IMG/VR virus record: IMGVR_UViG_2799112719_000001
Length of the DNA stretch: 64,000 bases
Direction: 5' to 3' (one strand)
Origin: a virus
Made by a program: the position numbers and the translations under genes. A model generated the notes under the pieces. It was not told where the DNA came from. It saw nothing but the letters and a program-made list of their open reading frames with translations, and made no database searches. How positions within the stretch are numbered: the first letter of the stretch is position 1; each line of letters begins with the position of its first letter. Positions 1-62,722 of this stretch are shown here, piece by piece.

Positions 1-1362
1 AAGAACCTGGACGAACTGGCTAAGTGGGTCAGCAAGAGTGAGCAGCGTATGAATGAGCTGACTCATAGCAACCATACCGGCGGTTACAATTATGTGCTGA
101 TGTGGAAGTATGACGGCATTTCGTGCTCTATCGTTTATCAGGATGGCGAACTGGTGAGTGCATCGACTCGTGGCGATGGTAGGGTAGGGCAGGACATCAC
201 CGAGCATGTGAAGATGATGGGTAGTGTGCCCCAGCAGCTTTCAAAGATTTATTATGGTGAGGGCTTTTCTCTCAAAGGTCGTATCGAAGTGCGTGGCGAG
301 ATCTGTTGCAGTAAGAAGAATCTGCCGTTGCTCTCTCAGAAGTACACCGACTGCCGTACTGCCGCCAGCAGCTTGTGCAACCAGGCCGTGCCCGATGAGT
401 ACGACATGGCTATGCTCGACTTCATTCCCTGGGATGCTATAATTGACGAACAGATCAGCTGCCAGCGTTACCTTTGTCCTACGCCGTTGGGTTATCCTTG
501 GCATAAGCTCTCATTCCTGGAGAACCTGGGTTTCGTGCATCGTGCAGAGACTTTCTCGCCTCATGGCTACGAAGCCTGTGCTGCCTGCATTGCAGAGCGT
601 GAGAAGGAGCGTGACGCTTATCCATGGCCTGTTGACGGTGTGGTTATACGCATTACGCATGATGACTACTTCCAGATGTTCGGTGCCACTGAGCACCATC
701 CTCATGGCTCTATTGCCTATAAGTTTGCACCGGCTAAGACCATTACCCGCTGCACTCGCATTGAGGTGACTGTCGGTAAGACCGGCAAGCGTACTCCCGT
801 CGTACACTTCGAGCCTGTCACCATTATGGGCCGTACCGTCCGTAAGGCCAGCGTGGGCAGTGAGGCCACTCTCCAGCGTCTTGGTGTGGTCATGGGTAGC
901 ACCATTGAGGTAGGACTTGCTAACGATGTCCGTCCGACTGTCTATCGCGTTATAGAGGATGCAGAAAATCAGGCTCCCGAAGTTACGGAAAATGACCCCT
1001 TAGAGGGTATCGACTTCCCTGGTGAAGAGAGTCCTGTATGTAGCAACATTGTTGCTGCCTCTGAAGAGGAACAGCCCGAAGAGCCTTGGTTGGCTCCGTC
1101 GTTTGCAGATCTCTATCCTGAGACGCAGGTACTTCACGAGGCACCTACGCCTCCAGTAGTGGAGCCTGCTGTCGTTCCTGTCAGTGAGGATGATGGCCAG
1201 CAGTCGCCTGGTGGCTCTGTTGCTGCTCCTAACGGTAAGCATAAGATTCTGGCTGCCGTGGCCACTCTCTGCGTGGCTCTGGCCGTTGTGTGTGGTGCTG
1301 CCGTGCTCCTGGGTGCTCTGGCCTTTGCGCTGCCTGTGCTCAATGGAACACTTCGCGCATAA
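1..1362 (+). CDS. ligA: NAD+-dependent DNA ligase-like protein (adenylation + OB domains only), 5' end cut by window edge, C-terminal hydrophobic helix
   Basis: Frame is open from nt 1. KYDG adenylation motif, STRGDGRVGQDIT, EVRGE, VDGVVI and AYKF..GKTGKRTPV match the LigA NTase/OB core. No Zn-finger/HhH/BRCT region. Ends with a Pro/acidic linker plus ILAAVATLCVALAVVCGAAVLLGALAFALPVL. Confidence 0.85.
   Translation, partial: KNLDELAKWVSKSEQRMNELTHSNHTGGYNYVLMWKYDGISCSIVYQDGELVSASTRGDGRVGQDITEHVKMMGSVPQQLSKIYYGEGFSLKGRIEVRGEICCSKKNLPLLSQKYTDCRTAASSLCNQAVPDEYDMAMLDFIPWDAIIDEQISCQRYLCPTPLGYPWHKLSFLENLGFVHRAETFSPHGYEACAACIAEREKERDAYPWPVDGVVIRITHDDYFQMFGATEHHPHGSIAYKFAPAKTITRCTRIEVTVGKTGKRTPVVHFEPVTIMGRTVRKASVGSEATLQRLGVVMGSTIEVGLANDVRPTVYRVIEDAENQAPEVTENDPLEGIDFPGEESPVCSNIVAASEEEQPEEPWLAPSFADLYPETQVLHEAPTPPVVEPAVVPVSEDDGQQSPGGSVAAPNGKHKILAAVATLCVALAVVCGAAVLLGALAFALPVLNGTLRA
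982..1000. repeat. Iteron-like 19-mer inside the ligase ORF
   Basis: GTTACGGAAAATGACCCCT is identical to 3704-3722 in the origin region. Confidence 0.6.
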
Positions 1363-1406
1363 TCATCAATTCATAGATTCATAAATTCATAAAATCATTA
1401 TAGTAT

Positions 1407-2234: not shown

Positions 2235-2336
2235 TGGTCCTGTATGTGGTTATGTTATAACGACTCTGAAAAATCACAGTTTTCATAAATTCATTAACTC
2301 ATATTTTCATAAATTCATAAAATAATGACGATTTTA

Positions 2337-2368
2337 TTTTGTCAATTCAAAGTTTTATAGTACATTTG
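2337..2368 (+). promoter_or_regulatory. Bacteroidota-type promoter upstream of parA
   Basis: TTTG (2337-2340) and TAcaTTTG (2361-2368) with 20-nt spacing. Shares ATTTTGTCAATTCAA with 40607-40621. Confidence 0.5.
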
Positions 2369-2392
2369 CACCAAATTAAAATAATATAGGTT

Positions 2393-3256
2393 ATGGAAAG
2401 ACTGAAAGAAGTTTTGGCTTTTGCCAACAACAAGGGTGGGGTAGCGAAGACTACCACCGTGCAGAACGTGGCTGCCGGAATGCTGAGACGTGATCCGTCG
2501 CTGCGCATCCTCTGCATTGACCTGGACCCGCAAGGGAATCTCTCATCGCTCCTGGGATGGAGGGAAAAGATGAAACAGTATCACGAGCAGAAGCACTCGA
2601 CGCTGACGGTGGCCGACGCTCTGAGGGATGGCGATAACAATCACCTGCCAGTGTATCAGAGCCGCGAGGGGCTGTTCTATGTGCCTGCATCGCCCATGCT
2701 GGCCGAGATAGATCCTGACCTGCACCGCCAGATGCAGCCGAAGCTGGTGCTGGCCTCGCTGTTTGGTAACGACATTCACTACATGGATAACCTCTACATG
2801 GAGGCAGAGCGACTGGATGGAGACTACATAGAGGACTGCTTCGACTATGTGCTGATAGACTGTGCTCCTGCGCTGTCAGAACTGACCTACAACGCCCTGG
2901 GTGCCGCTACGGGTGTAATCATACCCGTGCAGCTGGGTTCGCTCAGTGTGGACGGCATAGGGCGCATGATGGAGGCTTACAAGGCGGTTAAGCGGAAACT
3001 AAACAACGACCTGGATATGCGGGGCCTGCTGATAGTGATGGCCGATGAGCGCACTAACCTGGCACGAGAGACCAGCGACTTCCTGCGCGACACCTACGAT
3101 GCCGACATGTTCAAGACGCGCATCCGTCAGTGTGTGAAGGTGGGTGAAAGCCAGTTCCAGCATCAGGACATCTTCGACTATGCGCCTGACTGTACCGCTG
3201 CCCGCGACTACGACGATTTTATCACGGAATTGTTGAACAATGATAATGAGGAATAA
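2393..3256 (+). CDS. parA: ParA/Soj-family partition ATPase
   Basis: Deviant Walker A NNKGGVAKTT at the N-terminus, plus LIDCAP and ParA-like length. Confidence 0.9.
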   Translation: MERLKEVLAFANNKGGVAKTTTVQNVAAGMLRRDPSLRILCIDLDPQGNLSSLLGWREKMKQYHEQKHSTLTVADALRDGDNNHLPVYQSREGLFYVPASPMLAEIDPDLHRQMQPKLVLASLFGNDIHYMDNLYMEAERLDGDYIEDCFDYVLIDCAPALSELTYNALGAATGVIIPVQLGSLSVDGIGRMMEAYKAVKRKLNNDLDMRGLLIVMADERTNLARETSDFLRDTYDADMFKTRIRQCVKVGESQFQHQDIFDYAPDCTAARDYDDFITELLNNDNEE

Positions 3257-3258
3257 CT

Positions 3259-3600
3259 ATGGCTACAAAATCGTATAAGAAAAAGAGTATCGTGGCTGGA
3301 TCACCTGCCATTCAGGAACACGAGGCCATGATGCAGGAGGTGATGAATGAGCAGCCTGTCAACGACACGCCAGCCGTTCCGACGGCCAGTGTGCCAACAG
3401 GTAAGGGCGTGAAGCCTACGGGTGTGTTCTCGCAGTATGCTACTGGCATGACGAAGAATGTGCAGACGCGCATCCCCTTTGACATGTACCAGCGTTTGCT
3501 TGCCCTGAAGATGCAGAGTGAGCAGCGGGATAAGAAACTGAAACTCTCCATCGGCGACCTGGTGCTTCAGGCCATCGACGAATATCTGCAACGGCATTGA
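3259..3600 (+). CDS. Ribbon-helix-helix DNA-binding protein, ParG-like partition partner
   Basis: Starts 3 nt after parA. The C-terminal RIPFDMYQRLLALK...IGDLVLQAIDEYLQRH fits a beta-helix-helix (CopG/ParG) pattern behind a disordered N-terminal tail. Confidence 0.6.
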   Translation: MATKSYKKKSIVAGSPAIQEHEAMMQEVMNEQPVNDTPAVPTASVPTGKGVKPTGVFSQYATGMTKNVQTRIPFDMYQRLLALKMQSEQRDKKLKLSIGDLVLQAIDEYLQRH

Positions 3601-3601
3601 G

Positions 3602-3725
3602 GTTACGTCCTCATACCCCTTACTTAAAGGCTATGCAGGAAATCACCGATTTTGGAGAGTTACCGAATTTGACCCCTAAATTTACGACCCCGCACCCCTG
3701 AAGGTTACGGAAAATGACCCCTAAA
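3602..3725. repeat. Iteron cluster, orientation 1 (GTTACnnnnnnnnACCCCTAA), 3-4 copies
   Basis: Copies at 3602, 3659, 3681 (degenerate) and 3704, about 22 nt apart. Followed by an AT-rich stretch at 3727-3852. Confidence 0.8.
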
Positions 3726-3852
3726 TGAAGCATTTTCTTTATTTATTATATAGTATTGAGAATTTTCTTTTATGGATTTAGAAAAGATATATAATTATAA
3801 CGGTATGAAAATAGCCGGAAAAGCCTTTATACAAAGGGTTTCCGCTCTTTGC

Positions 3853-4036
3853 AGGGTGCAAATGTCCGTAACTTTCGGTGCAAATGTTCGTAACATAAGG
3901 GTAATTATCCGTAACCGTAGGGGATATTCTCTGGAACCCTTTTGTTTAGGGGTAAAACAGCGTAACCTATCGCTGAATATGGTGGAAGATTTAGGGGTAA
4001 AATCCCGTAACCTGTTTAGGGGTAAAACTTCGTAAC
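3853..4036. repeat. Iteron cluster, orientation 2 (TAGGGGTAAAAnnnCGTAAC), about 7 copies
   Basis: Copies start at 3853, 3875, 3897, 3918, 3947, 3992 and 4017. They are the reverse complement of the 3602-3725 set and lie directly upstream of the Rep-like gene. Confidence 0.8.
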
Positions 4037-4070
4037 TTTGAGTCGATACTAAGTTTCAACTTATAAAGAA

Positions 4071-5540
4071 ATGACTATGGCAAAGAAAAACAAAGACGAT
4101 AAGATGCAGGCACTCATCAAGAGCGACAATGCCATTATCCGTGAGCTGCGCGATCAGAAGTGGATTTATAATCCCAAGGTGTTCGCACAGGTGGCTGGTG
4201 ACTTCTCGCTGATGCACCAAAGGGTTCTGTTGGGTGTGCTCGAAAAGCTGCAAGACCGTATAGCCTATTCTGCTTCTGAGCATCAGAAGAATCAGCAGCT
4301 TTGGCTCCCGCTCTTCTCGCCGGACGAAATGAATACGTCGGTGGACTTCGAGATAGACCCAAGAGATATTGGTGTGACTCCTGGCCACTATCCTGAGTTG
4401 GCACAGGCTTTGTCAGATCTGATAGGTCTGAAGATGGGTTGGCCGAAGCGTAAGGGTAATAAGACGGTGTATCAGTTTGTGTCATTCTTCAGTCGCCTGG
4501 AAATGCCGATGACTGAAAGCGGATGGCGCACAGGAAAGATCCGCGTAAAGATGGATAAGGAGAATGTCAACGACTTCTTATCCATGGAGCGTGGCTATAC
4601 TGACCACATCGCTAAGATTGCTCAGTTCTCGAAGAAACAGCGTACTCCCAGACTGTATATCTACCTTTCGACGTTCAAATATAAGAAGCGTGACGAAGTA
4701 GAGTACCCAGAACTGTGCGAGTTCCTTGGCATTGATGATGAAAGTTATGTGGAGTCGCATAAGGCAGAGAATCCTAATGTGAAGCCTACGGATAATCCTT
4801 TTCATAAGTTCTCGAAGGTGAAGAAACTGATTCTGGACCCATCGAAGCAGGAAATGGATAAGTTCTCGGCTGAGAAGAAAATCGACTTCACGTTTACTTA
4901 CGAGCCGATGTATAAGGATGGCCGTAAGAAGGGTAATCCTACGCATATTGAGTTTGTCATCGTTCCAGGACCGCTGGGAATTGAGCGTGAACAGGACCGC
5001 AAACGTCATGGGCAGGTGCAGAGTGTCATCAGTTCGCTTACGAAATGGTGTCCTGACATCAAACCTTACGAGGTGGTGGAACTGGCCAAGGAGGTGCAGG
5101 ATGACTGGCTGGATGACTTCTGTAACTTTGCCTACGACGATGTGCGCCATCAGGTAGAGAAGACTCAGCCAGACCATGTGGCAGAATATGTCATTACGAT
5201 GCTCTCTAACTGGATTAAGGATCGTCAGATGGCCGCAGAGCGTAAGCGTATAGAGGACCAGAGACAGTATGAGCTATTTGAGCGTCAGGAGGCAGAAAGT
5301 AAGTGGCCTGCTTGCTTTGCTGAGATCTCGGCATCTATACCTGTCACTTCCAGTCAGCTTTATTTCTGTGACTATGGGAATGCAGAGATAAAAGGGGTGG
5401 TTAGAAAGACCATCACTTTGTGGATAGTGAATGAGGCATTTATATCGGTGATTGAAAGCAAAGAGAATCTGCCGGCCTATGAGGGTGCTATCCGTAAATA
5501 TTATGGTCAAATAGCCGTTCAATACAAATTGATAAGGTAA
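4071..5540 (+). CDS. Replication initiator, Rep_3/RepB-like
   Basis: N-terminal IKSDNAIIRE...FSLMHQRVLLGVLEKL resembles the Rep_3 signature (xSNxLIea..ltl.EqRlll). Flanked by iterons on both sides. Confidence 0.6.
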   Translation: MTMAKKNKDDKMQALIKSDNAIIRELRDQKWIYNPKVFAQVAGDFSLMHQRVLLGVLEKLQDRIAYSASEHQKNQQLWLPLFSPDEMNTSVDFEIDPRDIGVTPGHYPELAQALSDLIGLKMGWPKRKGNKTVYQFVSFFSRLEMPMTESGWRTGKIRVKMDKENVNDFLSMERGYTDHIAKIAQFSKKQRTPRLYIYLSTFKYKKRDEVEYPELCEFLGIDDESYVESHKAENPNVKPTDNPFHKFSKVKKLILDPSKQEMDKFSAEKKIDFTFTYEPMYKDGRKKGNPTHIEFVIVPGPLGIEREQDRKRHGQVQSVISSLTKWCPDIKPYEVVELAKEVQDDWLDDFCNFAYDDVRHQVEKTQPDHVAEYVITMLSNWIKDRQMAAERKRIEDQRQYELFERQEAESKWPACFAEISASIPVTSSQLYFCDYGNAEIKGVVRKTITLWIVNEAFISVIESKENLPAYEGAIRKYYGQIAVQYKLIR

Positions 5541-5541
5541 G

Positions 5542-5564
5542 GTTACGGAAAATACCCCCTAAAT
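5542..5564. repeat. Isolated iteron copy just after the rep stop codon
   Basis: GTTACGGAAAATACCCCCTAAAT. Confidence 0.65.
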
Positions 5565-5592
5565 TTGTCTCACATTTTTCATTTGATAGAAG

Positions 5593-5627
5593 TACCTTTG
5601 GCGTAGTATTCACCAAAGGTATTTTTA
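5593..5627 (+). terminator. Hairpin plus T-tract terminator after rep
   Basis: TACCTTTGG / CCAAAGGTA 9-bp stem followed by TTTTT. Confidence 0.6.
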
Positions 5628-7215: not shown

Positions 7216-7310
7216 ATATTAAGCATGTTTGAACAGTCTTATTTTGCAGAAATCTGTCACATTAAGCAGGTTTGAAACTTCTTAATTTACAGATACCCGT
7301 CAAATTCTAA

Positions 7311-7553
7311 TCAATTCTTACCTTTACTCTGTTGTGCCATGGCCATCAGTTTACGCTCTTCGTCGGTGGTGGTGTCAAGCGTGATTTGTTTGAAGTCTGG
7401 GTATTTCTCCCATATCAGATCAGAGGCTTCAAGAGCCTTTGATACGGTGTCTTTTATCAAGTCCTGAAATCCGTCCAGGTTCTTAATCTCGTTGGTCTCA
7501 GGTTCAATGCGGAAAGTTCTGTCATTGATGCCCTGTGCTAATATAATTTTCAT
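7311..7553 (-). CDS. hypothetical protein
   Basis: 80-aa ORF with the TCATnAA leader directly upstream. Confidence 0.55.
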   Translation of the reverse strand: MKIILAQGINDRTFRIEPETNEIKNLDGFQDLIKDTVSKALEASDLIWEKYPDFKQITLDTTTDEERKLMAMAQQSKGKN

Positions 7554-10961: not shown

Positions 10962-11452
10962 GGGCAAATCATTCTTTTTAGATGGTCTAATGCTGCATTG
11001 ATTTCGTGGATGTTGTCATTATTGCTTTCCCCATACATACGCAGCAGCTCTTTCACACGCTGTTTGAAGGCTCTGTTTGGATGGTGAATCACTTTCATTT
11101 CGCTTCCGTCGGTTCCTTTCTCTACGACGATGTGCAGGCCGGAAATGATCTCTGCCAGTTCCTCTTTCGACACTTCACGCACAAAGATGCCGGCAATCTC
11201 GGTATAGCGGTATGTGTTGCCGTTTTCAATGACTGTCACGTTCCACTCAGGGCAGCAGCCTGGCTTTGATGGTGGGTACTTGAAAATCTGTTTGATGGTA
11301 ACAACATTGCTGAAGATGTCAACAACCTTTTGGCCTACCTCAAAGAGAAACGGTTTTACGCTTGTAATGGCGTAGTCCTCTTCTTTATTCCATTTGTCCC
11401 TGGCAATTACTGCACTGCCATCTTCTCGGACGTTTATTGAGTATTCTAACAT
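10958..11452 (-). CDS. hypothetical protein
   Basis: 164-aa ORF. Confidence 0.6.
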   Translation of the reverse strand: MLEYSINVREDGSAVIARDKWNKEEDYAITSVKPFLFEVGQKVVDIFSNVVTIKQIFKYPPSKPGCCPEWNVTVIENGNTYRYTEIAGIFVREVSKEELAEIISGLHIVVEKGTDGSEMKVIHHPNRAFKQRVKELLRMYGESNNDNIHEINAALDHLKRMICP

Positions 11453-11463
11453 GAATTTATGAG

Positions 11464-11892
11464 TTAATGATTCTTTTTTACATCGCGGGTCTGATAACTA
11501 CGGATGCCTGTGTAGATGGTTCCGAGTTGGTCTTTCCCTATTTTATTGCGGAGATATTCTTTTGATAGTTGTACGATATAGCAGCCGCAATGGTTTTCGT
11601 TGGCTTTTATTTCTGTAATGCTGAATCCCCATCGACGCAATAAGCGTAAGGCGATATTGAGATTCTTCTGACTATTGAATCGTATTCCGCAAGTTGGATC
11701 AAGTACGATTTTTCCTGCATAGTCTGGATTGAGAATGATGTTTTGTATAAACACTATTCCATGTTTGGAAAAATCCTCTACGAGCATTTGCCTAAACTCA
11801 GAGACAGGAAACAGCTCTCTTTTTTGTTGCATCCTTGCCCTGAAGCATTCATCCATTAAATAGGTGTTCATAATTACTATTCTTTTAACCAT
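11464..11892 (-). CDS. hypothetical protein
   Basis: 142-aa ORF. An alternative start at 11871 would avoid overlapping the GNAT gene. Confidence 0.55.
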   Translation of the reverse strand: MVKRIVIMNTYLMDECFRARMQQKRELFPVSEFRQMLVEDFSKHGIVFIQNIILNPDYAGKIVLDPTCGIRFNSQKNLNIALRLLRRWGFSITEIKANENHCGCYIVQLSKEYLRNKIGKDQLGTIYTGIRSYQTRDVKKNH

Positions 11893-14899: not shown

Positions 14900-14918
14900 A
14901 ATTTTATGAATTTATGAG

Positions 14919-15155
14919 TTAATGAGTTTTCTTACAGGGGCAATTAGCATAGTGCTCATAAGTCCAGTTGCTATATAGCCCTGGGCGTGAAGCCATATAG
15001 AGGTGCCCATTCTTTTTTGCTATGCAGTAGGTGTTGTATTCCTCTACAATCTCGAAGCCGTCATGTTCGAGGTCGTATTCTTCGCAGTGTTGTAAAACTA
15101 CTGCCAGAATAACCAGGAAGGCGATAACCATAATGACTTTGACAATCTTATCCAT
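14919..15155 (-). CDS. small membrane protein
   Basis: N-terminal TM helix VIMVIAFLVILAVVL. Confidence 0.5.
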   Translation of the reverse strand: MDKIVKVIMVIAFLVILAVVLQHCEEYDLEHDGFEIVEEYNTYCIAKKNGHLYMASRPGLYSNWTYEHYANCPCKKTH

Positions 15156-16870: not shown

Positions 16871-16897
16871 TTAATGAATTGATGAATCTATGAATGA

Positions 16898-18565: not shown

Positions 18566-18567
18566 AA

Positions 18568-33992: not shown

Positions 33993-36900
33993 ATGGCAGA
34001 TACAAAGAAATCCGAGGTAGTCATTACCTGTAACGCCCAACAGCCAAAGGCCGCTGTCCGTGCTATGGAAACGGAGCTGAAACGTCTTCAGGCTGCATAC
34101 AAGCAACTCTCCGACGCTGGTAAGGCCGGCACAGAGAGGGCAAAACAGATGGCTCACGAAATCAAGGAACTCTCCATCGCCGTGAAGGAGGGTAAGGCCA
34201 ACATGGATAAGATTGTTACCGTGACAAACAATCTTTCCAACTCTTCCCTGTCACAGCTGCAACGTGCTTTGCGCCAGGTGAAGAAAGAAATGGGCCGTGT
34301 CAGTACCGATTCGCCTAAACTCGATGACCTGCGCCAGAAATACAAGGCCATCACCGACCAAATCAAAATCCTTCAGGGTGAAATGGTCAACATCCAGAAG
34401 CACATGGGCAATTTCTCCCAGACTTCTGACGCATGGCTCTCTCGTGCCATCAATCAGCAGAAGCAACTCGTGGCTCAGACTGACAAAACGAATAGTGGCT
34501 ATCAGCGTCAGGTGGATATTCTGCATCAGCTTCAGGCCGAACAGCAGAATAGGGCAATGGCTACCGTATTGAATGGTGGTGCTACTGCTGATGATCTCCG
34601 TGCCGCTCGTGCCTCTATCACGTCTTACCGTGACCAGTTAGGTAAAGGTGGTATTATGCCTGTTGGTGGTGACGTGGCACGGGAAATTGAAGCCTGTAAT
34701 GTCGCTCTGAAGAAATGTGATGAGCAGTTGGATGTTATTGCCGGTAAGGAGAAACAGATTGAGCCGACCGTGCAGGAGATAGAGCAGGATATCACGAAAT
34801 TGGTTGGTAGTCTGGCTAACGCCTCTCCTGAACAGCTCCGTAAGGGTTTGGAGCAATGCCGTAACCAACTGGATAAGATGGCTGCAAACGACCCCAACCG
34901 TCAGAAGTGGGTTACTTGGGCAAAGCAGCTGAAAACGGCTCTCGAAGGTGTGGACCGTGAAGCCGTTGACATCGACAAAGTGATGCGTAACCTCAAAAAA
35001 GAGCCATTGGAGAATCTTCGTAAGGCTGCAAAGCAGTTGGAAGAGGAAATGGTGAAACTGAATCGTGAGGATGCAAAATATAAGGATCGCCAGAAACAAC
35101 TACAAAAGATTCGTGGTGAGATAGACAGTGTTACGCGCTCTATCAATAATCAGGCTTCTGCATGGAGTACGACGTTTAGAAATATCTCCATGTACTTTGG
35201 TGTGTTCCAGCTCTTCTCGATGGCACAGCAGAAGCTCCAAGAAATGCTCCGTAGTAACCTGGCTTACTCCGACCAGTTGGCAGACATCCGTAAGGTGACT
35301 GGACTGGCCACTAAGGATGTGAACGAATTGGCTGAAAGCATAGCAAAACTTGATACGCGCACAAGCATTCAGGAGTTGTCAGATTTGGCGTACCAAGGCG
35401 GTAAGATGGGATTTGGAAAATACGGTGTGGAAGGCATGGTCGAATTTGTCCGTGCTGCCGATCAAGTTAAGGTTGCTCTTTCCGATGACCTCGGCGAAGA
35501 CAGCCTCTTGCAGATTTCAAAGCTCATTGATACGATGGGCCTCATTCCGAAACTCGGTGTCGAAAAATCCATGCTGTCTGTAGGATCTGCCATTAACCAG
35601 CTTGCGGCCACTTCTACTGCCAGTGGTACGCATATCGTGGACTTCTCGAAACGCCTTACAGGTTTGTCGCGTATTACAGGAATTACTACGCCGGAGCTTT
35701 TGGCATTGGGAAGTGCAGCGGATGCTTTAGGGCAGGCTCCTGAAGTTGCAGCCACGGCCTTTGGTAAACTCTTCACGTCTTTGCAGACCAATCACAATCT
35801 GATTGAACAGCAGCTAAACATGGAGAAAGGTACTATCAATAACCTTTTCTCACAGGGTAAGGCTATGGAGGCCATTCTGCAAATCATGGAAAAGATGCGT
35901 GATAAGGGTAACATGAATGCGCTGGGTAACATCTGGAAAGATCTTGGTTCTGAGGGTCAACGCTTGATAGGTGTGATGGCCACCATGTCGAAGAATGTAG
36001 ATACTGTACGCGCACATGTAGAGGAAGCTAACGAGGCTTTTGAAGAGGCAACATCGCTGACCACGGAGTATGCCATGAAGCAGGAAACGGCTAATGCCAT
36101 TCTTGAACGTGCCAACCAACTTTGGGTAAGAACATTCGTGAACCCAGAGGGTGTTGACACCGTGAAGGAGCTGTCGCAGGCTTGGTATGACATGAGCCAA
36201 AAGCTGACCTCTTCGGCTCTCTACATGGGTCAAATAAGACTCGTGCTGACAATGATTATTGCTGCCGTGAAGCTGCTGGTGGTTCTGTTGCCTACGCTTA
36301 TCCAGTTCCTGTTGTTCAAGGGTGCTTATATGGGCGTGATGGCTCTCTATCGTGGCTTCGTGGCAATGAAGACTGCCATTATCGGTGCTATGGTGGCACA
36401 GCAGGGCCTTAACACGGCTATGAAGGCTAACATCTTCGGACTGATAATCTCCCTGATAGCTTCTGCCGTCGTTTGGCTAACAAACTATGGCAATGCTGCC
36501 GATGATGCTGCCAACAAGCAGAAGACGATGAACGAGTACATCAAGGAGGCTGCTGCTGAGATCGACAAAGAGACTCGTAAACTGGAATCCTATAAGCGTG
36601 TCCTGGAAGACGCGAACACGTCACAGGCACAGCGTGAGCGCATCCTGAGACAGTTTAACCGTACTTACGGCACCTATCTGAATAAACTCGGCATCGAGGT
36701 TAATTCGGTGGATGACCTGCGTAAGCATTACGCGCTCTTGAATGATGAACTGCGCAAAAAAATATATTACCAGACGAAGCAACGCGCTTACGATCAGGAG
36801 TTGGGCGATAAGGCTGGAGAGTTGGGCAAAAAGGCTCGTGCTTTCTCTGACCTGACGGTAAATAATTCGCGTGATGGCTCTTTTGCTGCCTACGATACCA

Positions 36901-39632
36901 AATGGCTTGAAGATCAGATAAACCAGAATCAGAACACTTATGGTAGTGTAAACTGGGTTTCCATCTATTCTGACATGGTGCAGAGCCGTTTCGGTAGGCG
37001 TACTGATGGTAGAAGTGGCTTTAATAACGACTATTCGGTATTTACCGATATGGCTGGTACTGAGCATAATGTAGCAGCTTATGGCAAGGCTATTCGTGAA
37101 TATGTGGATGCCTGGCAGGAGTATAACAAGACGAAAAAGAGTATTGATGCAGCTCTTGACCCGCTCATCGGCGACTACGATCCGTTTGCTGAGACTCCAG
37201 GCGAACTGACGAATGATGCTGTTGACAAAGAAGCTGAGAAGCGTCGCCGTGCAGAGGAAGCAGCCCGTCGCAAGGCTCTTCGTGCTGAAATGCGCGAGGA
37301 ACAGGATAAGGCCAAGGCTATCATCGACAATGTAAAGAACTACTACGAGCGTCAGATTGCTGCCATTACGGAAATGGCTACCCGTACCGGCATGGATTCA
37401 GAGCTTCAGAAGAAACTCGTGGATGGTATGACGGTACGCATGAATAGCGCATTGGCCAATGTTCGCCAGGCTATTGCCGGCACAGAAAACGAATGGGCTG
37501 ATTTCCGTCAGTCGATGATGGATGATCTCTACGAGCCGCTTTCTGCCGATGGCACCAACCAGTCAACGAAGTTGCTCGACAATATCATTCACAATGACAT
37601 CGACCAGCTGAAAAAGATGATTGAAACGCTCTCTAAGGAGCTGGGGCAGAATGGTTCCGTATTGCTCGATCAGATATGGCGTAAGGCTACTGAGAATGAG
37701 TTGGCCAATGCAAAACAGGCAAATACGGCATACCAGGCCCGCCAAAAGGTGTTGTTGGAAAAGAACTATACCGGCAAAGTAAACCGTGACTATGAGGGTC
37801 AGATGGAGCAGTTGGGCGTGGCCGAGCTGACTTCCAACCAGTCGAAACAACTGATGCAATGGTCTCAGGAAGGTAAGTCTGAGGACATTCAAAACTTCGT
37901 TAATAGTCGCTCTCAGTTGTGGCAACAGGCATTCTTGAAAGCTCGTGAGCATATTGTGGATGTCTTTGCTGCTGATGTCTCTACTGAAGATGGCCAGAAG
38001 GCTATGCTTACGTTGCTCTTTGGCGAGGACTACAATGGTACGTTATCCGGCTCTGCCTTGGAGTCTATGCTGAATATGGACTTGCAGCAGTGGCAGGTGT
38101 TCTATCAGAAGCTCATCGAAATGTCCGACGCTTACACCGATGCCCAGAAGAAAGCCTATGACGAAGCAAAGCGCCGTGCTGACTTCGTGTTTAACAACCG
38201 TCCTGACATCCAGGGCATCGACAAAGCCACACAGGATCTTTCGACTATCAATAGCGACCAGCAGCGTTTCGGCTCTGATAAGAACTTCACACAGCAGCTT
38301 GGAATGTCCTGGGATATGGATTCTGACCCAGAGATACTGCGCTATCGCCTGCTGTCGGAAAAGGCCCGTCTCTACTATCAGGAAATGAAGTCGCTCCGTG
38401 AGCAGGATAAGATCAGCGAACAGCAGTTGACCGATGCTAAACGTCAGATGATGGAGGCACAGACGGCCATGGCCGATAAGGTGGCCGCTAAGTTCAATGA
38501 GCGTGTTCAACTGTTGCAGTCATTCAGCGAACCGATGGCGACCTTTGCCGAAGGGGTAGGGGAGTACCTGGAAAGCCTCTCTGATGATGCGGAGGATTCT
38601 AACGAGAAGATGAAGAACATGGCTAAGACCATGCTCAAAGCCTACGCCAAGATGACGCTTCAGCTGATGGCCGAAGACCTGACTCGCCGCGTCACCAAGC
38701 AGCTATACCATCGTCAGGAGGAAGCCGACGAAACGCTGCATCAGCAGACATTGCTCCAGATACAACAGATGTACCAGGCACTCATGCTGACAGCACAGCA
38801 GACGGGCGACGCTGCACGTCTCACACAGCATTCGACATCTAACGCTGCCGAACTGTCTGAGGAAGCAACGGCCACAACGGGTAAGGTGGGACTTGGTATT
38901 GCCGGTGGTGCTGCTAAGATCATTGGCACCTTGGGCTTCTGGGGTATTCCGCTCATCGCTGTTATCACAGCCTTGCTGATGGGCTTGCTCTCATGGGCTA
39001 TCTCTGCTGCCTTTGGCGGTAGTGACAGTGGCGGTGCTGATTCTGGTCCTAACGTAAAGCTGGCCACGGGTATGCTGACATACGACGGTGGTAACGTGCA
39101 GTCTGTTGGTGGCGGTTCCACTCCATCCGGCGACACTACAAGCCCTGTCCTCGGTACAGATGGCAAGGTGTATAACGCTAAACAGGTAGGTAAACTTCAG
39201 ACGGGCATTGTTACACAGCCTATCGCTACCATGGTCAACGGCCAGCCGTCTCTCGTGGGCGAGAAAGGCCCTGAAATGGTAATTGGTAGGGAAACAACAG
39301 CAGCTATGCAAATGGCGCGTCCTGACCTTATCAATGAGATTGTGAAGTTCGATAAAAACTTCTCAGGGCGTGGATTCCGCACTTATGACGATGGCAACCT
39401 GTCCGACTTCACGGTGCCCGATGCGTCAGCAGCGGGTGAAAACATGCTCACCTCTGATGACATCCAGGGATTCCGTGATACGATGGCAGAGTTTACGGCC
39501 ATGATGTTGTTACTCCAGAAGAATGGCCTGCACGTCAACAAATTCGGACGTGGAAGCGTCACTCAGGAGTCTGCCGACGGTGCCGCATTCATGCGTCGTA
39601 ACTCCGGCGATCGTCTGTGGCGTAAGGGCTAA
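33993..39632 (+). CDS. Tail tape measure protein
   Basis: 1879 aa. Extended coiled coils, a central hydrophobic block (LVLTMIIAAVKLLVVLLPTLIQFLLF...) and a second TM cluster near residue 1640. Confidence 0.85.
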   Translation: MADTKKSEVVITCNAQQPKAAVRAMETELKRLQAAYKQLSDAGKAGTERAKQMAHEIKELSIAVKEGKANMDKIVTVTNNLSNSSLSQLQRALRQVKKEMGRVSTDSPKLDDLRQKYKAITDQIKILQGEMVNIQKHMGNFSQTSDAWLSRAINQQKQLVAQTDKTNSGYQRQVDILHQLQAEQQNRAMATVLNGGATADDLRAARASITSYRDQLGKGGIMPVGGDVAREIEACNVALKKCDEQLDVIAGKEKQIEPTVQEIEQDITKLVGSLANASPEQLRKGLEQCRNQLDKMAANDPNRQKWVTWAKQLKTALEGVDREAVDIDKVMRNLKKEPLENLRKAAKQLEEEMVKLNREDAKYKDRQKQLQKIRGEIDSVTRSINNQASAWSTTFRNISMYFGVFQLFSMAQQKLQEMLRSNLAYSDQLADIRKVTGLATKDVNELAESIAKLDTRTSIQELSDLAYQGGKMGFGKYGVEGMVEFVRAADQVKVALSDDLGEDSLLQISKLIDTMGLIPKLGVEKSMLSVGSAINQLAATSTASGTHIVDFSKRLTGLSRITGITTPELLALGSAADALGQAPEVAATAFGKLFTSLQTNHNLIEQQLNMEKGTINNLFSQGKAMEAILQIMEKMRDKGNMNALGNIWKDLGSEGQRLIGVMATMSKNVDTVRAHVEEANEAFEEATSLTTEYAMKQETANAILERANQLWVRTFVNPEGVDTVKELSQAWYDMSQKLTSSALYMGQIRLVLTMIIAAVKLLVVLLPTLIQFLLFKGAYMGVMALYRGFVAMKTAIIGAMVAQQGLNTAMKANIFGLIISLIASAVVWLTNYGNAADDAANKQKTMNEYIKEAAAEIDKETRKLESYKRVLEDANTSQAQRERILRQFNRTYGTYLNKLGIEVNSVDDLRKHYALLNDELRKKIYYQTKQRAYDQELGDKAGELGKKARAFSDLTVNNSRDGSFAAYDTKWLEDQINQNQNTYGSVNWVSIYSDMVQSRFGRRTDGRSGFNNDYSVFTDMAGTEHNVAAYGKAIREYVDAWQEYNKTKKSIDAALDPLIGDYDPFAETPGELTNDAVDKEAEKRRRAEEAARRKALRAEMREEQDKAKAIIDNVKNYYERQIAAITEMATRTGMDSELQKKLVDGMTVRMNSALANVRQAIAGTENEWADFRQSMMDDLYEPLSADGTNQSTKLLDNIIHNDIDQLKKMIETLSKELGQNGSVLLDQIWRKATENELANAKQANTAYQARQKVLLEKNYTGKVNRDYEGQMEQLGVAELTSNQSKQLMQWSQEGKSEDIQNFVNSRSQLWQQAFLKAREHIVDVFAADVSTEDGQKAMLTLLFGEDYNGTLSGSALESMLNMDLQQWQVFYQKLIEMSDAYTDAQKKAYDEAKRRADFVFNNRPDIQGIDKATQDLSTINSDQQRFGSDKNFTQQLGMSWDMDSDPEILRYRLLSEKARLYYQEMKSLREQDKISEQQLTDAKRQMMEAQTAMADKVAAKFNERVQLLQSFSEPMATFAEGVGEYLESLSDDAEDSNEKMKNMAKTMLKAYAKMTLQLMAEDLTRRVTKQLYHRQEEADETLHQQTLLQIQQMYQALMLTAQQTGDAARLTQHSTSNAAELSEEATATTGKVGLGIAGGAAKIIGTLGFWGIPLIAVITALLMGLLSWAISAAFGGSDSGGADSGPNVKLATGMLTYDGGNVQSVGGGSTPSGDTTSPVLGTDGKVYNAKQVGKLQTGIVTQPIATMVNGQPSLVGEKGPEMVIGRETTAAMQMARPDLINEIVKFDKNFSGRGFRTYDDGNLSDFTVPDASAAGENMLTSDDIQGFRDTMAEFTAMMLLLQKNGLHVNKFGRGSVTQESADGAAFMRRNSGDRLWRKG

Positions 39633-52256: not shown

Positions 52257-52286
52257 ATGCCCGCTGGTTTCCCCAGCGGGTTTTTT
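52257..52286 (+). terminator. Conserved hairpin, family copy 5, with T-tract
   Basis: ATGCCCGCTGG-TTTCC-CCAGCGGGTTTTTT. Confidence 0.65.
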
Positions 52287-52348
52287 GTTTCCCCGAAATC
52301 GCGTTTTACAGCGAGAAATAGCGTCCATTCCCTATCCTCTGTGTTATC

Positions 52349-52356
52349 TACCTTTG
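52349..52356 (+). promoter_or_regulatory. -7 box TAccTTTG upstream of the protease gene
   Basis: Lies 27 nt upstream of the ATG at 52383. Confidence 0.4.
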
Positions 52357-52382
52357 CGAGTAGAATAAAATTCGCAAAAGAT

Positions 52383-54020
52383 ATGAATGGACTTCTCGAA
52401 CTTCTGACAACAAAGCTGTGGATGATTATGCCTGAATACGTCCACGGCTCTCGTGCTATTTGGGAGCAAAACCTGAATGGCCGCATAGCACTCGATCTTC
52501 AGCAGAAGAAAAAGCCCTATGCCATGCAGATACAGGATGGCCAGGCTGTCGGTGTCATCAATGAGTACCAGGTGACAGAAAACGGTAAGACTACCTCCCG
52601 TTGGTGGATGGACGAAATGGATGCTCCTTTTGTCAATGTCATGCCGGTGGATGGTCCTATCACTCGTGAAGGTGGTGCTTGCTCCTATGGCTCGATGGAT
52701 TTGCGCGACTGGATGATGGAGGCTGCAAATAATGAGTTCTGTCAGGCACACATCTTTGTTATTAACTCTCCTGGTGGTTCTGCATGGGCTATCAATGATT
52801 TCAAGCAGGCTATCGACTATGCCCATGAGCATGGTCAGAAGGTATATGCTTTCGTGGATGGCCTCTGTGCCTCTGCTGCTATGTACCTGGCCAGCGTATG
52901 TGATGAAGTGTACTACATGCACCCCAAGGATATGTTTGGATCCATCGGTGTGATGGCCGCTTTCTATACTGAAAAGAATGGCACCACCAATCAGTACACC
53001 AATGAGACTTACCATGAGCTGTACGATCCTGAGTCTTACGACAAAAACAAGTGGTATCGTGACATTGCTGAGAATAGCAAGAATGATAAGAAGCTGATGG
53101 ATGACCTGAAAAAGACGGGCGTAGAGTTCCGCGCTGACATCCAAAAGTCTTTCCCTGCTGCTACTGAGAAGCATATCCATGGTGCGCTCTTCGAGGCACA
53201 GGAGGTCACAGGCATTCTCTGTGATGGCCAGATGACTCTCGGAGAGGTCGTTGCCCGTGCCTTTGAGGTAGCCAACGGTTCTGCTACTCCCATTGAGCGC
53301 GTCGCTCCTGTTAAGCCGGAGGATGACGTGCCAGAGGATGATCCAGCTCCCGCCGCTTCTGCAAAAGCAACCACTACTGAAGCATCCGCTTCGGGTGAAA
53401 AGAATAACCCCTTAAACAAAGAGAATATGAAACAGTACGAAAAGATTGCCACCGCTTGCGGTGTAGAAGAGCTTATCGTCAACGAAGAAGGTGCCCACTT
53501 CGTGCCCTCTATGTTGGATGCGCTCAATCAGACGCTCGAACAGCAGGCTTCCGATAAGGCTGCCGCTGATGAGCAGGTACAGACTCTTCAGACCCAGCTC
53601 TCTGAGGCAGAGAATGCCAAGACTGAGGCCGTCAACGCCAAGGAGCAGGAACTGAATGACTCTCACGAGAAGGCTATGGGCGAGTTGAAGACCGCTCACG
53701 AGCAGGAGATTAACAACATGAAGCAGCAGCACGAAGAGCAGCTGAATGCCGAGAAGGAAGCCAAGGGTAAGGTCGAGCAGGAGCTGGCAGAGGTGAAGGA
53801 AAGCCTGGCCACTGCCGAGCAGCAGTTGAAAGACCGCGAAGCTCAGATTGAGACCTTGAAGGGCAAGCCTGGTGATCAGCAGGAGGGTTCGCCTGCCAAC
53901 AATGGCACTGGTGCTGAGTCTCACGAAGCTACCTGTGGTATGCCGGACTACGACCACAACAAGACCCCGCTGGAGAATGCCCGCATCCGCAAGGAGTACA
54001 TGGAATCTCTGCAAAAGTAA
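52383..54020 (+). CDS. Prohead serine protease (S49/ClpP-like) fused to a coiled-coil scaffold domain
   Basis: VINSPGGSAWAINDF...VDGLCASAAMYLASVCDEVYY matches the S49 pattern. The C-terminal 200 aa are an E/Q/K-rich coiled coil. Start moved out of the terminator hairpin. Confidence 0.75.
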   Translation: MNGLLELLTTKLWMIMPEYVHGSRAIWEQNLNGRIALDLQQKKKPYAMQIQDGQAVGVINEYQVTENGKTTSRWWMDEMDAPFVNVMPVDGPITREGGACSYGSMDLRDWMMEAANNEFCQAHIFVINSPGGSAWAINDFKQAIDYAHEHGQKVYAFVDGLCASAAMYLASVCDEVYYMHPKDMFGSIGVMAAFYTEKNGTTNQYTNETYHELYDPESYDKNKWYRDIAENSKNDKKLMDDLKKTGVEFRADIQKSFPAATEKHIHGALFEAQEVTGILCDGQMTLGEVVARAFEVANGSATPIERVAPVKPEDDVPEDDPAPAASAKATTTEASASGEKNNPLNKENMKQYEKIATACGVEELIVNEEGAHFVPSMLDALNQTLEQQASDKAAADEQVQTLQTQLSEAENAKTEAVNAKEQELNDSHEKAMGELKTAHEQEINNMKQQHEEQLNAEKEAKGKVEQELAEVKESLATAEQQLKDREAQIETLKGKPGDQQEGSPANNGTGAESHEATCGMPDYDHNKTPLENARIRKEYMESLQK

Positions 54021-57376: not shown

Positions 57377-57424
57377 CCGTCTTCGTGTCTTCATAAAATC
57401 ATTAACTCATAAATTCATAAATAA

Positions 57425-58555: not shown

Positions 58556-60547
58556 ATGGCAGAGAGAAGAGACGTTTACATGAACCACAAGCAGTACCTG
58601 ATGTACCTGATGAATGTACGAGACGGTCGCTTGCTTGGTAGCCGACGATTTGGTAAGACTGACGGCTCTATCGGGCCTCGCATCTATCGTGTCAGTCAGT
58701 CTATGCCTCGTGCTACGAATATATGGTTGGGAAACTCCAGAAAACAGCTCTATACCCGTACCGTTCCTGGCACCATTGCCGCCATTGAGCGTTTCTTTGG
58801 CATCCGTGAGTCAGTACATTTCGGCTGGGGTAAACCGCCACGATGGGTGCCGAGTCCTATCATCAAACCGAAGACCTGGGATAACTGCATCTGGTTTGCT
58901 AATGGCACCATTTGGCAACTCATTTCAATGGCAGTCACGGGATCGGCCAATTCGCTGACGGTAAACTCCATCGTGGCCGATGAGTGCAAGTTTATGTCGA
59001 AGTCCAAACTGGATGGTGAAGTCATGCCGGCATTGTCAGGTATCGTGCATCCGTTGGGCGACCCGTCTTTCTCTGATGCAAACCCACTTTTCAAATCCAC
59101 TTTCTTTGCCTCTGATGCGAGTCTGACATCAAAGAATAACTGGCTGGAGAATGAGGAAAGCAAACTCGACATGCACCCTGATACGGGGCCATTGACTAAC
59201 AAGACCTATCGGGAGATACAGGCTGAGTTGGAAGACTATGCAGAGCGTGTCATCTTCTACAATGAACTGCTGCGTAATGCCAAGCGTGACGGCTGTGTGC
59301 CTATCCTTTGCCGTCAGGATGAGATAGATGCCATCCGTATCAAGGCACAGGCCATGATGAACCACGAAGGCCCGTTCAAGATCCTGCCGAACTATGGCCA
59401 ACGTATCAATAAGGCCATGCTCGATATGGCTATCAACTATAAACTGATTGATGCAGAGGAAGCGGAATTACTCTATTGCCATAAGTATCTGATTACACCT
59501 GACCAGGACTTTGACATGCAGATGATTCTTAACTCGAAGTCCTACCAGAAGAAAATCCGTACCTTACAGTGTAACGCCTTTGCATTTTGGCGTGTCAGCA
59601 CCTTAGACAATGTAGATATCGTCGGAGAGTCGTACATAGCGAGAATGGCGCGTGACCTTCCTCCTGTCGTGTTTGCCATATCTATTCTTAATAAAAAGGT
59701 GGCAAAGACTAACGACGGTTTCTATTCCAATCTCGATATTGAGAATGTGCATGGCTATATTCCTGATGACTGTCCGGCCATTGACAGCAGCTTCACGAAA
59801 AAGAAAGCTATGACTGTGCTCGGTGGCTCTGCTACTGAAGAAGAGTACGAGACTCCCGACTTTGGCGAGTTACAGCAGATCAAAGACTGCACTCTGGATG
59901 GTGACGTAGTGGACGCGCTGCCTTTGTATATCAGCATGGACTATAACGCTAACATTAACTGGGTGGTGACTGGGCAACTCTATCGCAGGGATAACCAGGA
60001 ATGTCTCAATGTGCTCTCCAGTATGTATGTCAAGAATGAGCGTAAGCTGCGTGAGCTGATGGGCGACTGGCATCACTACTATAAGCCTAAGATGCAGAAA
60101 TGCCGTGAGGTCATCTATTTCTATGATGCAACAGCCAAGTTCAAAGGCTATGCCATCGAGGGTATGGAAGACTTCAAGGATGTGGTCATTAACGAGCTGA
60201 CGAAATACGGTTGGTCTGTACGGCCTGTTGACATGGGATCACCGATGGCCCACGAAATGAAGTATAAGGATATCAACGAGTCGCTGGCTGGTGTGGCCTA
60301 CCCTGCTATCCGCATCAATCGTGAGAATAACGAGGCTCTGATTATTGCCATGCAGAATGCGGAGGTGTCTATCGGCTATAAAGGGTTTAGGAAGAATAAA
60401 GCAGGTGAAAAGCTCTCTGAAGACGCAGACGATGCAGTACGCCTGGAGTACAGAACGGACGGCACCGATGCGTTTGACTCGCTCTATATTGGCTGCCGCT
60501 ATCATCTTACAAACATGTCGGGCATGTGCCTTCCATTAGGTGATTAG
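58556..60547 (+). CDS. terL: Terminase large subunit
   Basis: Walker A-like GSRRFGKT, Walker B-like SIVADE, 663 aa. Confidence 0.65.
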   Translation: MAERRDVYMNHKQYLMYLMNVRDGRLLGSRRFGKTDGSIGPRIYRVSQSMPRATNIWLGNSRKQLYTRTVPGTIAAIERFFGIRESVHFGWGKPPRWVPSPIIKPKTWDNCIWFANGTIWQLISMAVTGSANSLTVNSIVADECKFMSKSKLDGEVMPALSGIVHPLGDPSFSDANPLFKSTFFASDASLTSKNNWLENEESKLDMHPDTGPLTNKTYREIQAELEDYAERVIFYNELLRNAKRDGCVPILCRQDEIDAIRIKAQAMMNHEGPFKILPNYGQRINKAMLDMAINYKLIDAEEAELLYCHKYLITPDQDFDMQMILNSKSYQKKIRTLQCNAFAFWRVSTLDNVDIVGESYIARMARDLPPVVFAISILNKKVAKTNDGFYSNLDIENVHGYIPDDCPAIDSSFTKKKAMTVLGGSATEEEYETPDFGELQQIKDCTLDGDVVDALPLYISMDYNANINWVVTGQLYRRDNQECLNVLSSMYVKNERKLRELMGDWHHYYKPKMQKCREVIYFYDATAKFKGYAIEGMEDFKDVVINELTKYGWSVRPVDMGSPMAHEMKYKDINESLAGVAYPAIRINRENNEALIIAMQNAEVSIGYKGFRKNKAGEKLSEDADDAVRLEYRTDGTDAFDSLYIGCRYHLTNMSGMCLPLGD

Positions 60548-62696: not shown

Positions 62697-62722
62697 TAAT
62701 AACCCTTTAATATTCACGAAAG

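Follow-up and report, generated by a model that had tools for sequence, protein, structure and literature searches.

How does a tailed phage in whose genome no integrase can be found stay with its host? The question is raised by a stretch of 64,000 nt from IMG/VR virus record IMGVR_UViG_2799112719_000001 (hereafter the window, numbered from its first letter), in which phage structural and packaging genes share a genome with a plasmid-type replication and partition module. Phage-plasmids are common in Enterobacteria and Firmicutes. The module occupies ~3.4 kb of the plus strand (2235-5620) and runs from a repeat array and promoter through parA, a gene of 113 codons for a putative partner protein, a cluster of iterons, an AT-rich segment, a second and inverted iteron cluster and the initiator gene rep to one more iteron and a hairpin. 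A sequence-only reading of the window had taken this arrangement as the mark of a likely phage-plasmid, and every element that it listed is present at or near the place it gave. The evidence set out below favours the same answer: the window is probably part of the ~104-kb genome of a tailed phage of rumen Prevotellaceae, one that is temperate, does not integrate and is kept in its host as a circular plasmid at low copy number. The idea that the prophage is an extrachromosomal low-copy plasmid is supported by the plasmid homology of Rep and its iterons, by a circular map, by the lack of an integrase and by the free contigs on which relatives are found.

Initiator and origin

The gene rep (4071..5540, plus strand) encodes a 489-aa initiator whose residues ~10-300 resemble the paired winged-helix domains (WH1-WH2) of the Rep_3 family, followed by a helical middle and, at ~410-489, a region that resembles DnaA domain I. 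Its plasmid kinship is visible in a tblastn search of PLSDB, where residues ~10-303 align to 37 plasmids at no more than 26% identity (E 1e-18). These plasmids come from Segatella, Prevotella, Bacteroides, Phocaeicola and Butyricimonas, and the matched genes are labelled 'replication initiation protein' or 'RepB family plasmid replication initiator protein'. Among 28 aligned metagenomic relatives of the protein, 10 match the WH1 model Rep3_N, 14 match the WH2 model Rep3_C and four, which are distant members, match DnaA_N (best 1.7e-9). An AlphaFold model built on the alignment of the relatives (pLDDT 79) has as its best PDB match by Foldseek the WH1 domain of a Rep protein (6h24, probability 1.00, E 0.016), with DnaA domain I (4tps_D) found at probability 0.84 and E 0.83; the whole-chain comparison is weak because the protein has several domains. 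The Rep_3-like core that the sequence-only reading had assigned to the 489-aa gene is well supported at the level of the family, by plasmid homology and by the Pfam matches of the relatives, and the window protein taken alone stays below the Pfam cut-off.

The last 80 residues of Rep follow the helix-strand-strand-helix-strand order of DnaA domain I. For the subfamily of the window protein, the alignment by hhalign with the N-termini of the DnaA proteins of E. coli and B. subtilis is colinear from a shared W..C motif, at a low 14-25% probability; one relative, P0029, has a direct match to domain I of B. subtilis DnaA (E 0.04). From these alignments and from the predicted fold, a tail like DnaA domain I is plausible for Rep.

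The best plasmid match to Rep is the initiator of a circular plasmid of S. copri HDE06 (NZ_CP137558.1), 411 aa in length as against 489. This plasmid and the plasmid-like locus L125 both carry iterons spaced by 22 bp, in both orientations, beside their homologous rep genes. Judged by its sequence, the origin in the window is of the plasmid type, as in real plasmids of Prevotellaceae. The 93-kb S. copri plasmid was itself considered as a possible phage and set aside: the 15 kb viewed contain no phage gene, and its annotation is that of an ordinary plasmid.

The iterons are far more numerous than chance would have it. The pattern GGTTACG-N8-CCCCTAAA with up to three mismatches finds 11 matches in the 64 kb where 0.69 are expected, and none of 100 shuffles reaches that number. 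Four copies, starting at 3601, 3658, 3680 and 3703, form the left cluster (3601..3725, plus strand); five clear copies, at 3873, 3894, 3945, 3990 and 4015, form the right cluster on the minus strand (3873..4037) together with one or two degenerate ones, one of them at 3918. The right cluster ends 34 nt before the rep ATG. Two opposed clusters had been claimed with a spacing of about 22 nt, and this spacing holds approximately: neighbours lie 21-27 nt apart, with two wider gaps of 45 and 57 nt. A further iteron begins one base past the rep stop codon (5541..5563, plus strand), as had been noticed, and an eleventh copy, AGTTACGGAAAATGACCCCTTAG at 981..1003 (plus strand) in the NAD-ligase gene, had been missed. 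Both outlying copies have counterparts in relatives. The 23-mer in the ligase gene is kept with a single changed nucleotide in locus L011, whose ligase protein is 60% identical, and the site after rep is kept as one copy in L121 and as two inverted copies in L049.

Between the two clusters lies an AT-rich segment (3727..3812) of 18.6% GC, the presumed DNA-unwinding element, just where it had been described. An 80-nt stretch from 3721 has 16.3% GC and is tied with another from 2280 for the minimum of the window, whose overall GC content is 48.3%. An AT-rich stretch stands at the same place in all relatives read. No DnaA box (TTATCCACA, up to one mismatch) was found within 3550-4100; many but not all iteron origins have such boxes. 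In Bacteroidota the promoter consensus is TTTG at -33 and TAnnTTTG at -7. The end of the last iteron, GTAAC, runs into TTTG to give a perfect -7 box, TAACTTTG (4033..4040, plus strand), which lies 31 nt before the rep ATG and is presumed to belong to the rep promoter. Since the last iteron helps to form this box, binding of Rep should repress rep. Some annotators call an 87-aa open reading frame (ORF) at 3772-4035, which probably reflects no more than a translation of the iterons, as these give the repeated peptide LGVKxRN. Two features of an iteron replicon can be read from the sequence: several presumed initiator sites of ~20 bp by rep, in numbers well beyond expectation and in a conserved architecture, and beside them a presumed AT-rich unwinding region.

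What reads the iterons? Every phage relative that was read has a left cluster on the plus strand, an AT-rich core and a right cluster on the minus strand that extends up to the start of rep. The sequence of the repeat itself changes: relatives whose Rep is at least 59% identical keep the iteron CGTTACG-N8-ACCCCTAAA, those at ~40% (L124 and L044) have GTTACCAyGTTTTACCAAAA, and L123 has AGTTATA-N2-TTTTTACCCCTT. The partner protein, at 44-49% identity, is found with both iteron types. Because the iterons vary with Rep and not with the partner, Rep rather than the partner is their likely reader. An alternative in which the left cluster serves as a centromere bound by the partner was ruled out, as both clusters share one consensus that tracks the divergence of Rep. 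By analogy with RepE, pi and RepA, a two-part iteron of 23 bp would fit a monomer with two winged helices.

Partition operon and TCAT arrays

The gene parA (2393..3256, plus strand) encodes a small ParA/Soj-type ATPase of 287 aa with the deviant Walker A motif KGGVAKTT at residues 14-21. Its family membership, as previously claimed, is borne out by this motif and by matches to AAA_31 in Pfam (4e-34) and to the PHROG ParA family (2e-50), next to which CbiA matches at 2e-15; matches to the partition ATPases of NCBIfam fall below the cut-offs. The protein has no N-terminal helix-turn-helix (HTH) or other DNA-binding extension.

Three nucleotides after parA begins the gene of its presumed partner, a putative centromere-binding protein of 113 aa (3259..3600, plus strand), which matches no model in Pfam, PHROG or NCBIfam. 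Its 47 homologues align in three parts. The N-terminal peptide KKKSIVAGSPAIQEHEAMM is conserved, with K8, V12, S15, P16, A17, E20, H21, E22 and M25 invariant; the middle is a variable proline-rich linker; and the C-terminus is conserved again (NVQTRIP...Y...SIGD...AI..Y). In its strand motif NVQTR, the V, T and R are invariant, and N and Q occur in at least 90% of the homologues. The AlphaFold2 model has an extended stretch at 66-73 and helices at 74-90 and 98-112, with a pLDDT of 84-90 in the C-terminal part. This succession of an extended stretch and two helices is compatible with a ribbon-helix-helix (RHH) monomer, a label that stays hypothetical. Alignment by hhalign gives 16% probability to ParG and 9% to omega, with ParG and omega sequences that were entered by hand. 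Where a small RHH protein had been proposed, the position of the ORF after parA and the predicted secondary structure agree with the proposal, and the RHH fold itself found no supporting match. The assignment of the pair to type Ib partition is supported in part: a small ParA with a deviant Walker A motif and no N-terminal DNA-binding domain speaks for it, and its other half, the RHH fold of the partner, stays a hypothesis.

The par genes are apparently transcribed from a promoter of the Bacteroidota type, read from the sequence as TTTG, 19 nt and TACATTTG (2338..2368, plus strand). The same arrangement occurs in L011 and L119, and its -7 box in L115. At the far end of the module, the hairpin CCTTTGG-N11-CCAAAGG followed by a run of T (5595..5619, plus strand) resembles a terminator. 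Identity to the relative L049 is very uneven over the module, with ParA at 99%, the partner at 98% and Rep at merely 60%. These values indicate that rep has been swapped independently of par, and that the module is a mosaic.

The sequence-only reading had named no centromere. A candidate for one, or for an operator, lies upstream of parA, where five TCAT boxes follow each other with an exact period of 8 bp (2283..2318, plus strand). Similar arrays stand elsewhere in the window: arrays of at least three boxes give 11 pattern matches against 0.03 expected, and these form six arrays. Besides the one before parA there are two on the plus strand, one of five boxes that ends 9 nt before the ATG of a 275-aa gene (1363..1398) and one of four boxes before the gene at 57425-57787 (57391..57418). 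Three arrays of three boxes each lie on the minus strand: at 11451..11470, where the gene at 10958-11452 begins directly beside it, at 14906..14925, before the gene at 14477-14899, and at 16874..16893, before the gene at 16679-16870. Further arrays were found beyond the window in L004, at its positions 150, 3585, 3920 and 5624. In all, arrays are scattered across no fewer than 10 intergenic sites, nine of the ~10 falling within ~27 kb around par/rep.

Could the partner be the protein that binds them? In a set of 175 loci, the arrays are confined to this phage lineage. Every locus with a homologue of the partner has at least one array, and the loci that have an array and no homologue are only fragments of the same lineage. 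Every relative with a ParB homologue has an array before parA. The TCAT boxes are conserved, and so is the NVQTR strand of the partner; L123, in which a different small protein (strand GVQAYIP) is encoded, has no array. This association across loci is confounded by common descent. A role of the TCAT arrays as the centromere or operator of the partner is no more than possible.

A second candidate site, for a regulator or a host factor, is the imperfect palindrome GAAAAATCAC-N3-TTTTC at 2268..2284 (plus strand). It has a second copy at 3638-3655, within the left iteron cluster, so that two copies flank the operon of parA and its partner, and the GAAAAATCAC palindrome is kept in relatives that have different iterons. 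A third GAAAAATCAC copy, at 5638, is accounted for by the codons for MRKKS in the lipoprotein signal peptide of the next gene.

Phage genome, closed map and rival explanations

That the genome belongs to a phage is secure, as virion, packaging and lysis functions can be read from it. The terminase large subunit (TerL; 58556..60547, plus strand) is 30% identical over 87% of its length to the annotated TerL of Microcystis phages (E 3e-32), with weaker matches to a Porphyromonas phage TerL. A head-maturation protease of the S49 type, probably with a scaffold part (52257..54020, plus strand), matches phrog_53 at 7e-23, and a Peptidase_S49 match in a batch scan of the window is attributed to its gene. 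A tape-measure-like protein of 1879 aa (33993..39632, plus strand) matches phrog_25337 at 1.6e-37, and the PhageMin_Tail match of the batch scan is attributed to it. The portal gene, found by tblastn against annotated phages, and the lysis genes for a holin and an amidase, found with Pfam, lie outside the window. TerL, portal and capsid were all missed by Pfam, PHROGs and NCBIfam, and tblastn rescued the first two. The tape measure, protease and terminase that had been noted in the window are confirmed in this way; the capsid is not, as its candidate, a 426-aa ORF after the protease gene, matches nothing in the profile libraries or in phages.

No family of integrases, recombinases or transposases is found among the ~70 ORFs of the window (Pfam and/or PHROGs) or among 31 ORFs outside it (Pfam), which include a reverse transcriptase, a holin, an amidase, a ketoacyl synthase, a DUF4942 protein and a ligase. 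In a further 4 kb outside the window there are only small and lipoprotein-like ORFs, with no integrase recognizable by eye. The absence of an integrase, first stated for the 64 kb, extends in this way to ~35 of the other 40 kb.

The source genome is ~104,046 bp long, of which the window, starting within the ligase gene, makes up 61%. Two rumen contigs in ENA, k141_584085 (104,187 bp) and k127_164232 (104,285 bp), contain parts that match the window at 100% identity; their cut points differ, as befits independent assemblies. On k141_584085 the records of loci L006 and L013 are offset to window + 97,020 and window - 7,026, which gives a genome of 104,046 bp and leaves the contig with a terminal overlap of 141 nt. 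Such an overlap, here deduced from coordinates, is the mark that a circular genome leaves in a k=141 assembly, and the window spans the junction of the contig ends. Most of the other 40 kb was rebuilt from L013, L018, L171, L004 and L221, which are 96-100% identical where they overlap; ~35 kb are covered, and a few kb of the genome are unread. A check of circularity had been suggested for the assembly, and its outcome is a map that closes at ~104 kb, with independent assemblies broken at different points. The GC skew across the window follows the direction of transcription and carries no origin signal, no Rfam family is matched in the window, and a DNA search with the module found no match among GenBank phages.

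The relatives, too, appear as free elements. Contigs with homologues of Rep, the partner or the 2034-aa tail protein reach at most ~105-112 kb, many of them lying at 101-105 kb, and show no visible host flanks; the one longer contig, P0177 (140,756 bp), matches just 13% of the tail-gene query. The lineage is present on dozens of contigs (90-106 kb) from rumen and gut, and the closest relatives of Rep in GTDB genomes sit on contigs of 90-106 kb in metagenome-assembled genomes (MAGs) of rumen Prevotellaceae. One relative occurs in a cultured strain, Prevotella sp. MGM1, on a contig of its own (NZ_BEWV01000204.1, 90,283 bp), where the order is ligase, a 275-aa ORF, ParA (83% identical), partner (45%), Rep (39%), a 200-aa ORF, a radical-SAM gene and a methylase gene. 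A near relative carries a Bro-N/ANT antirepressor. MAG assignments and promoters of the Bacteroidota type together point to a host among the Prevotellaceae. A distant relative is present twice, 92.4 kb apart, on one contig of 184,950 bp (ERZ808270 NODE-1, loci L216/L217), which by its layout is a head-to-tail concatemeric assembly of a circular genome of ~92 kb.

Virion, packaging and lysis genes, plasmid-type replication and partition genes, and a genome that shows no integration machinery in all but a few unread kb are together what one would expect of a phage-plasmid. The plasmid state itself is likely, on the indirect support of the circular map and of the separate 90-kb contig in Prevotella sp. 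MGM1. Several observations weigh against it. The window Rep alone reaches 18.4 bits with Rep3_C (E 0.0027), where the Pfam cut-off is 21.1, and the profile of its family returns noise only from PDB sequences. Neither Foldseek nor a PDB profile search nor hhalign gave an RHH match for the partner. The TCAT arrays are always co-oriented with the downstream gene and, the array before parA of this genome excepted, end less than 10 nt before the start codon, a placement that would suit a centromere no better, and perhaps less well, than a promoter or leader element. No clear repressor/Cro switch came to light, and the two regulator-like ORFs described below are the only candidates for one. Near-identical contigs show the genome up to its last few kb, and of the MGM1 contig 21 kb were viewed. 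Finally, closed contigs of genome size that lack an integrase are also what virulent phages give.

Could this then be a mostly virulent phage, or one in an unstable carrier state, whose Rep and iterons form its ordinary and possibly sole origin, like lambda O at ori-lambda, and whose ParA and partner position or segregate replicating genomes during infection? Circular contigs without an integrase are equally expected of such a phage. On the other side, one relative lies in the assembly of a purified cultured strain (MGM1) and others are binned with Prevotellaceae MAGs. The genome does hold many replication and nucleotide genes of the lytic type: a 1213-aa DUF5906 primase-helicase, a second primase, a clamp, a ligase, ThyX, a dUTPase and a dCTP deaminase, with no polymerase family among the most frequent families listed by the batch Pfam scans. 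The first of these, however, is a separate protein of the initiator type that is available for lytic replication. The lack of a convincing repressor/Cro switch favours virulence, against which the antirepressor of the near relative has to be set. The TCAT arrays look like signals for gene expression. Against virulence, Rep and inverted iterons of 22 bp are common to true plasmids of the same bacterial family, and iterons beyond the origin, such as those behind rep and within the ligase gene, are a usual part of copy-number control in plasmids. On these grounds a virulent or carrier-state phage is an unlikely explanation, if the strongest of the alternatives.

An ordinary integrating prophage, with par/rep as cargo or remnants, would require an integrase that is hidden in the few unread kb or has diverged beyond recognition. 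The profiles do miss much in this genome, as TerL and portal exemplify. On the other side, more than 100 related protein clusters never occur on contigs above ~112 kb, bar the one partial match. The window runs across the ends of a contig that was assembled independently, no tRNA gene or att-like feature was found in the window, and the par/rep module is unbroken, keeps its gene order and is conserved in relatives with Rep identities as low as 39%. This explanation is accordingly very improbable. A chimera of a plasmid and a phage, for which the general risk of metagenome assembly is the whole support, can practically be dismissed, as different samples and different assemblers gave contigs with the same junctions, 100% identical, and the order ligase-parA-partner-rep is held in dozens of diverged relatives.

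Two tail proteins are encoded at 61512..63970 (plus strand), and the second of these genes (62723-63970) contains the variable region (63801-63919) of a diversity-generating retroelement (DGR). The template repeat (L013 11591-11709) and the reverse transcriptase (L013 11975-13321; phrog_1423, 3e-68) sit just beyond the end of the window; the two 119-nt repeats differ at 18 positions, 16 of which are adenines in the template. To the right of rep lies a variable cargo slot (6206-7553), occupied here by a radical-SAM gene and in other relatives (L005, L249-L256) by a gene of the PAPS-reductase family and a 335-aa gene. Next to it, the gene of an N6/N4 DNA methyltransferase (7738-8551, minus strand) is split by a homopolymer, the C7 tract at 7899-7905; on the coding strand this is G7 here and G6 in L005, which has an intact ORF of 270 aa. 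Since independent assemblies show versions of 270, 253 and 217 aa, the tract suggests phase variation rather than a single assembly error.

Two ORFs are candidate regulators. One, of 252 aa (21706-22464, minus strand), lies at a divergent junction and has a weak HTH match (phrog_2967, E 1e-4); the other, of 126 aa (L221 906-1286), looks XRE-like by eye and belongs to a near-identical relative, outside the window. A 570-aa protein (16898-18610, minus strand), whose N-terminus matches the HicA toxin family (E 4e-6) and a PHROG annotated 'toxin' (8.5e-7), could have a function in addiction or defence. Among the small ORFs of the window, the batch scan finds a domain like that of the Thoeris anti-defence protein Tad2, an HNH endonuclease, two YopX proteins and a GNAT acetyltransferase; outside the window it finds a beta-ketoacyl synthase, the batch scans naming families and not the ORFs that carry them.

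A model of maintenance and its counterparts

How would a plasmid prophage of this kind be replicated and inherited? In the model favoured here, the iterons would be occupied by Rep monomers, which open the AT-rich core and bring in the host helicase. As the origin has no DnaA box, the recruiter may be the DnaA-domain-I-like C-terminus of Rep itself. Theta replication would then be carried out by the host Pol III; the phage encodes a clamp, primases and a ligase of its own. The rep promoter would lie in the rep-proximal iterons, so that Rep represses its own synthesis. In P1, F and R6K, iteron sites outside the origin serve in copy-number control by pairing, and the single iterons that lie behind rep and within the ligase gene could control copy number in the same manner, as incA does in P1. 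Partition would rest on a system like type Ib, in which the partner contacts the 8-bp TCAT arrays through its C-terminus and stimulates ParA through its conserved lysine-rich N-terminal peptide, and which also represses its own promoter. For lytic growth, the phage would use the separate 1213-aa DUF5906 primase-helicase and the replication genes associated with it.

Two linked ideas go further and are rather unlikely. The first is that the partner acts as an omega-like global regulator, for which the ~10 TCAT arrays would be centromeres and operators at once, the operators setting the expression programme of the prophage in its plasmid state. The second is that the fusion of a helicase-recruiting module like DnaA domain I to a Rep_3 core replaces the dependence on host DnaA and lets helicases be loaded symmetrically. 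With such symmetric loading, the mirror-image iteron arrays may resemble the ORB/Orc1 origins of archaea more than those of classical iteron plasmids.

The closest counterpart among well-known phages is P1, a tailed phage of ~100 kb that lives as a low-copy plasmid, with iterons (incC/incA) before and after the gene of its initiator RepA, a par operon (ParA-ParB-parS) beside the replicon and a separate function available for lytic replication. The two differ in their partition proteins, P1 having a large ParA of type Ia with an HTH domain and a large HTH ParB where this phage has a small ParA and a partner of 113 aa. They also differ at the origin: oriR of P1 uses DnaA boxes, none of which were found here, and the iterons of this phage are arranged in two mirror-image clusters. 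The hosts belong to different phyla.

The initiator finds its counterparts in plasmids of the Rep_3 type, such as F (RepE), R6K (pi) and pPS10 (RepA), and in those of Prevotellaceae. Relatives of Rep have Pfam matches to WH1 and WH2, the N-terminal 300 residues align, and iterons of ~22 bp lie beside rep. Unlike these, the window Rep falls short of the Pfam cut-offs, is longer than the S. copri Rep (489 versus 411 aa) and sits in a phage genome; the S. copri protein lacks the helical middle and the DnaA-domain-I-like end.

For the partition genes, comparison with type Ib systems (ParF-ParG of TP228; delta-omega of pSM19035) yields a small ParA, a tiny downstream partner with a flexible N-terminus and a C-terminal strand-helix-helix pattern, and short tandem boxes upstream of parA, here TCAT every 8 bp. 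ParG recognizes ACTC tetramers separated by 4 bp, and the targets of omega are arrays of heptads found at several promoters. The wide dispersal of the TCAT arrays and their orientation with the downstream gene are, however, not typical of a centromere.

Within the Bacteroidota, the likeness is to crAssphage (PMC10983915) and to the 'Quimbyviridae' branch that has a RepA-like protein (PMC8008677), gut phages without an integrase that have been proposed to be episomal; Quimby-like phages also carry DGRs. The crAssphage preprint (PMC10983915) makes no mention of iterons, whereas ParA, its partner, iterons and a plasmid-homologous Rep are all present here, and the Quimby branch (PMC8008677) has only a RepA-like winged-helix protein beside a DnaB helicase. 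That few phage-plasmids have been characterized in this phylum, as the sequence-only reading had remarked, agrees with the literature found, which for Bacteroidota consists of the crAssphage preprint (PMC10983915) and the remark on a RepA-like protein in the integrase-less Quimby-like phages (PMC8008677).

Many abundant phages of Bacteroidota have no integrase, and how they persist is debated, the claim for crAssphage being recent and indirect. The lineage described here is widespread in rumen and gut, and its module is complete and easily read. Elements of this kind are binned into MAGs and may be counted there as plasmids or as phages. The 3.4-kb module is a candidate low-copy replicon with its own stabilizer for Prevotella and Segatella, for which few genetic tools are available, and a cultured strain, Prevotella sp. 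MGM1, makes the plasmid-prophage state directly testable.

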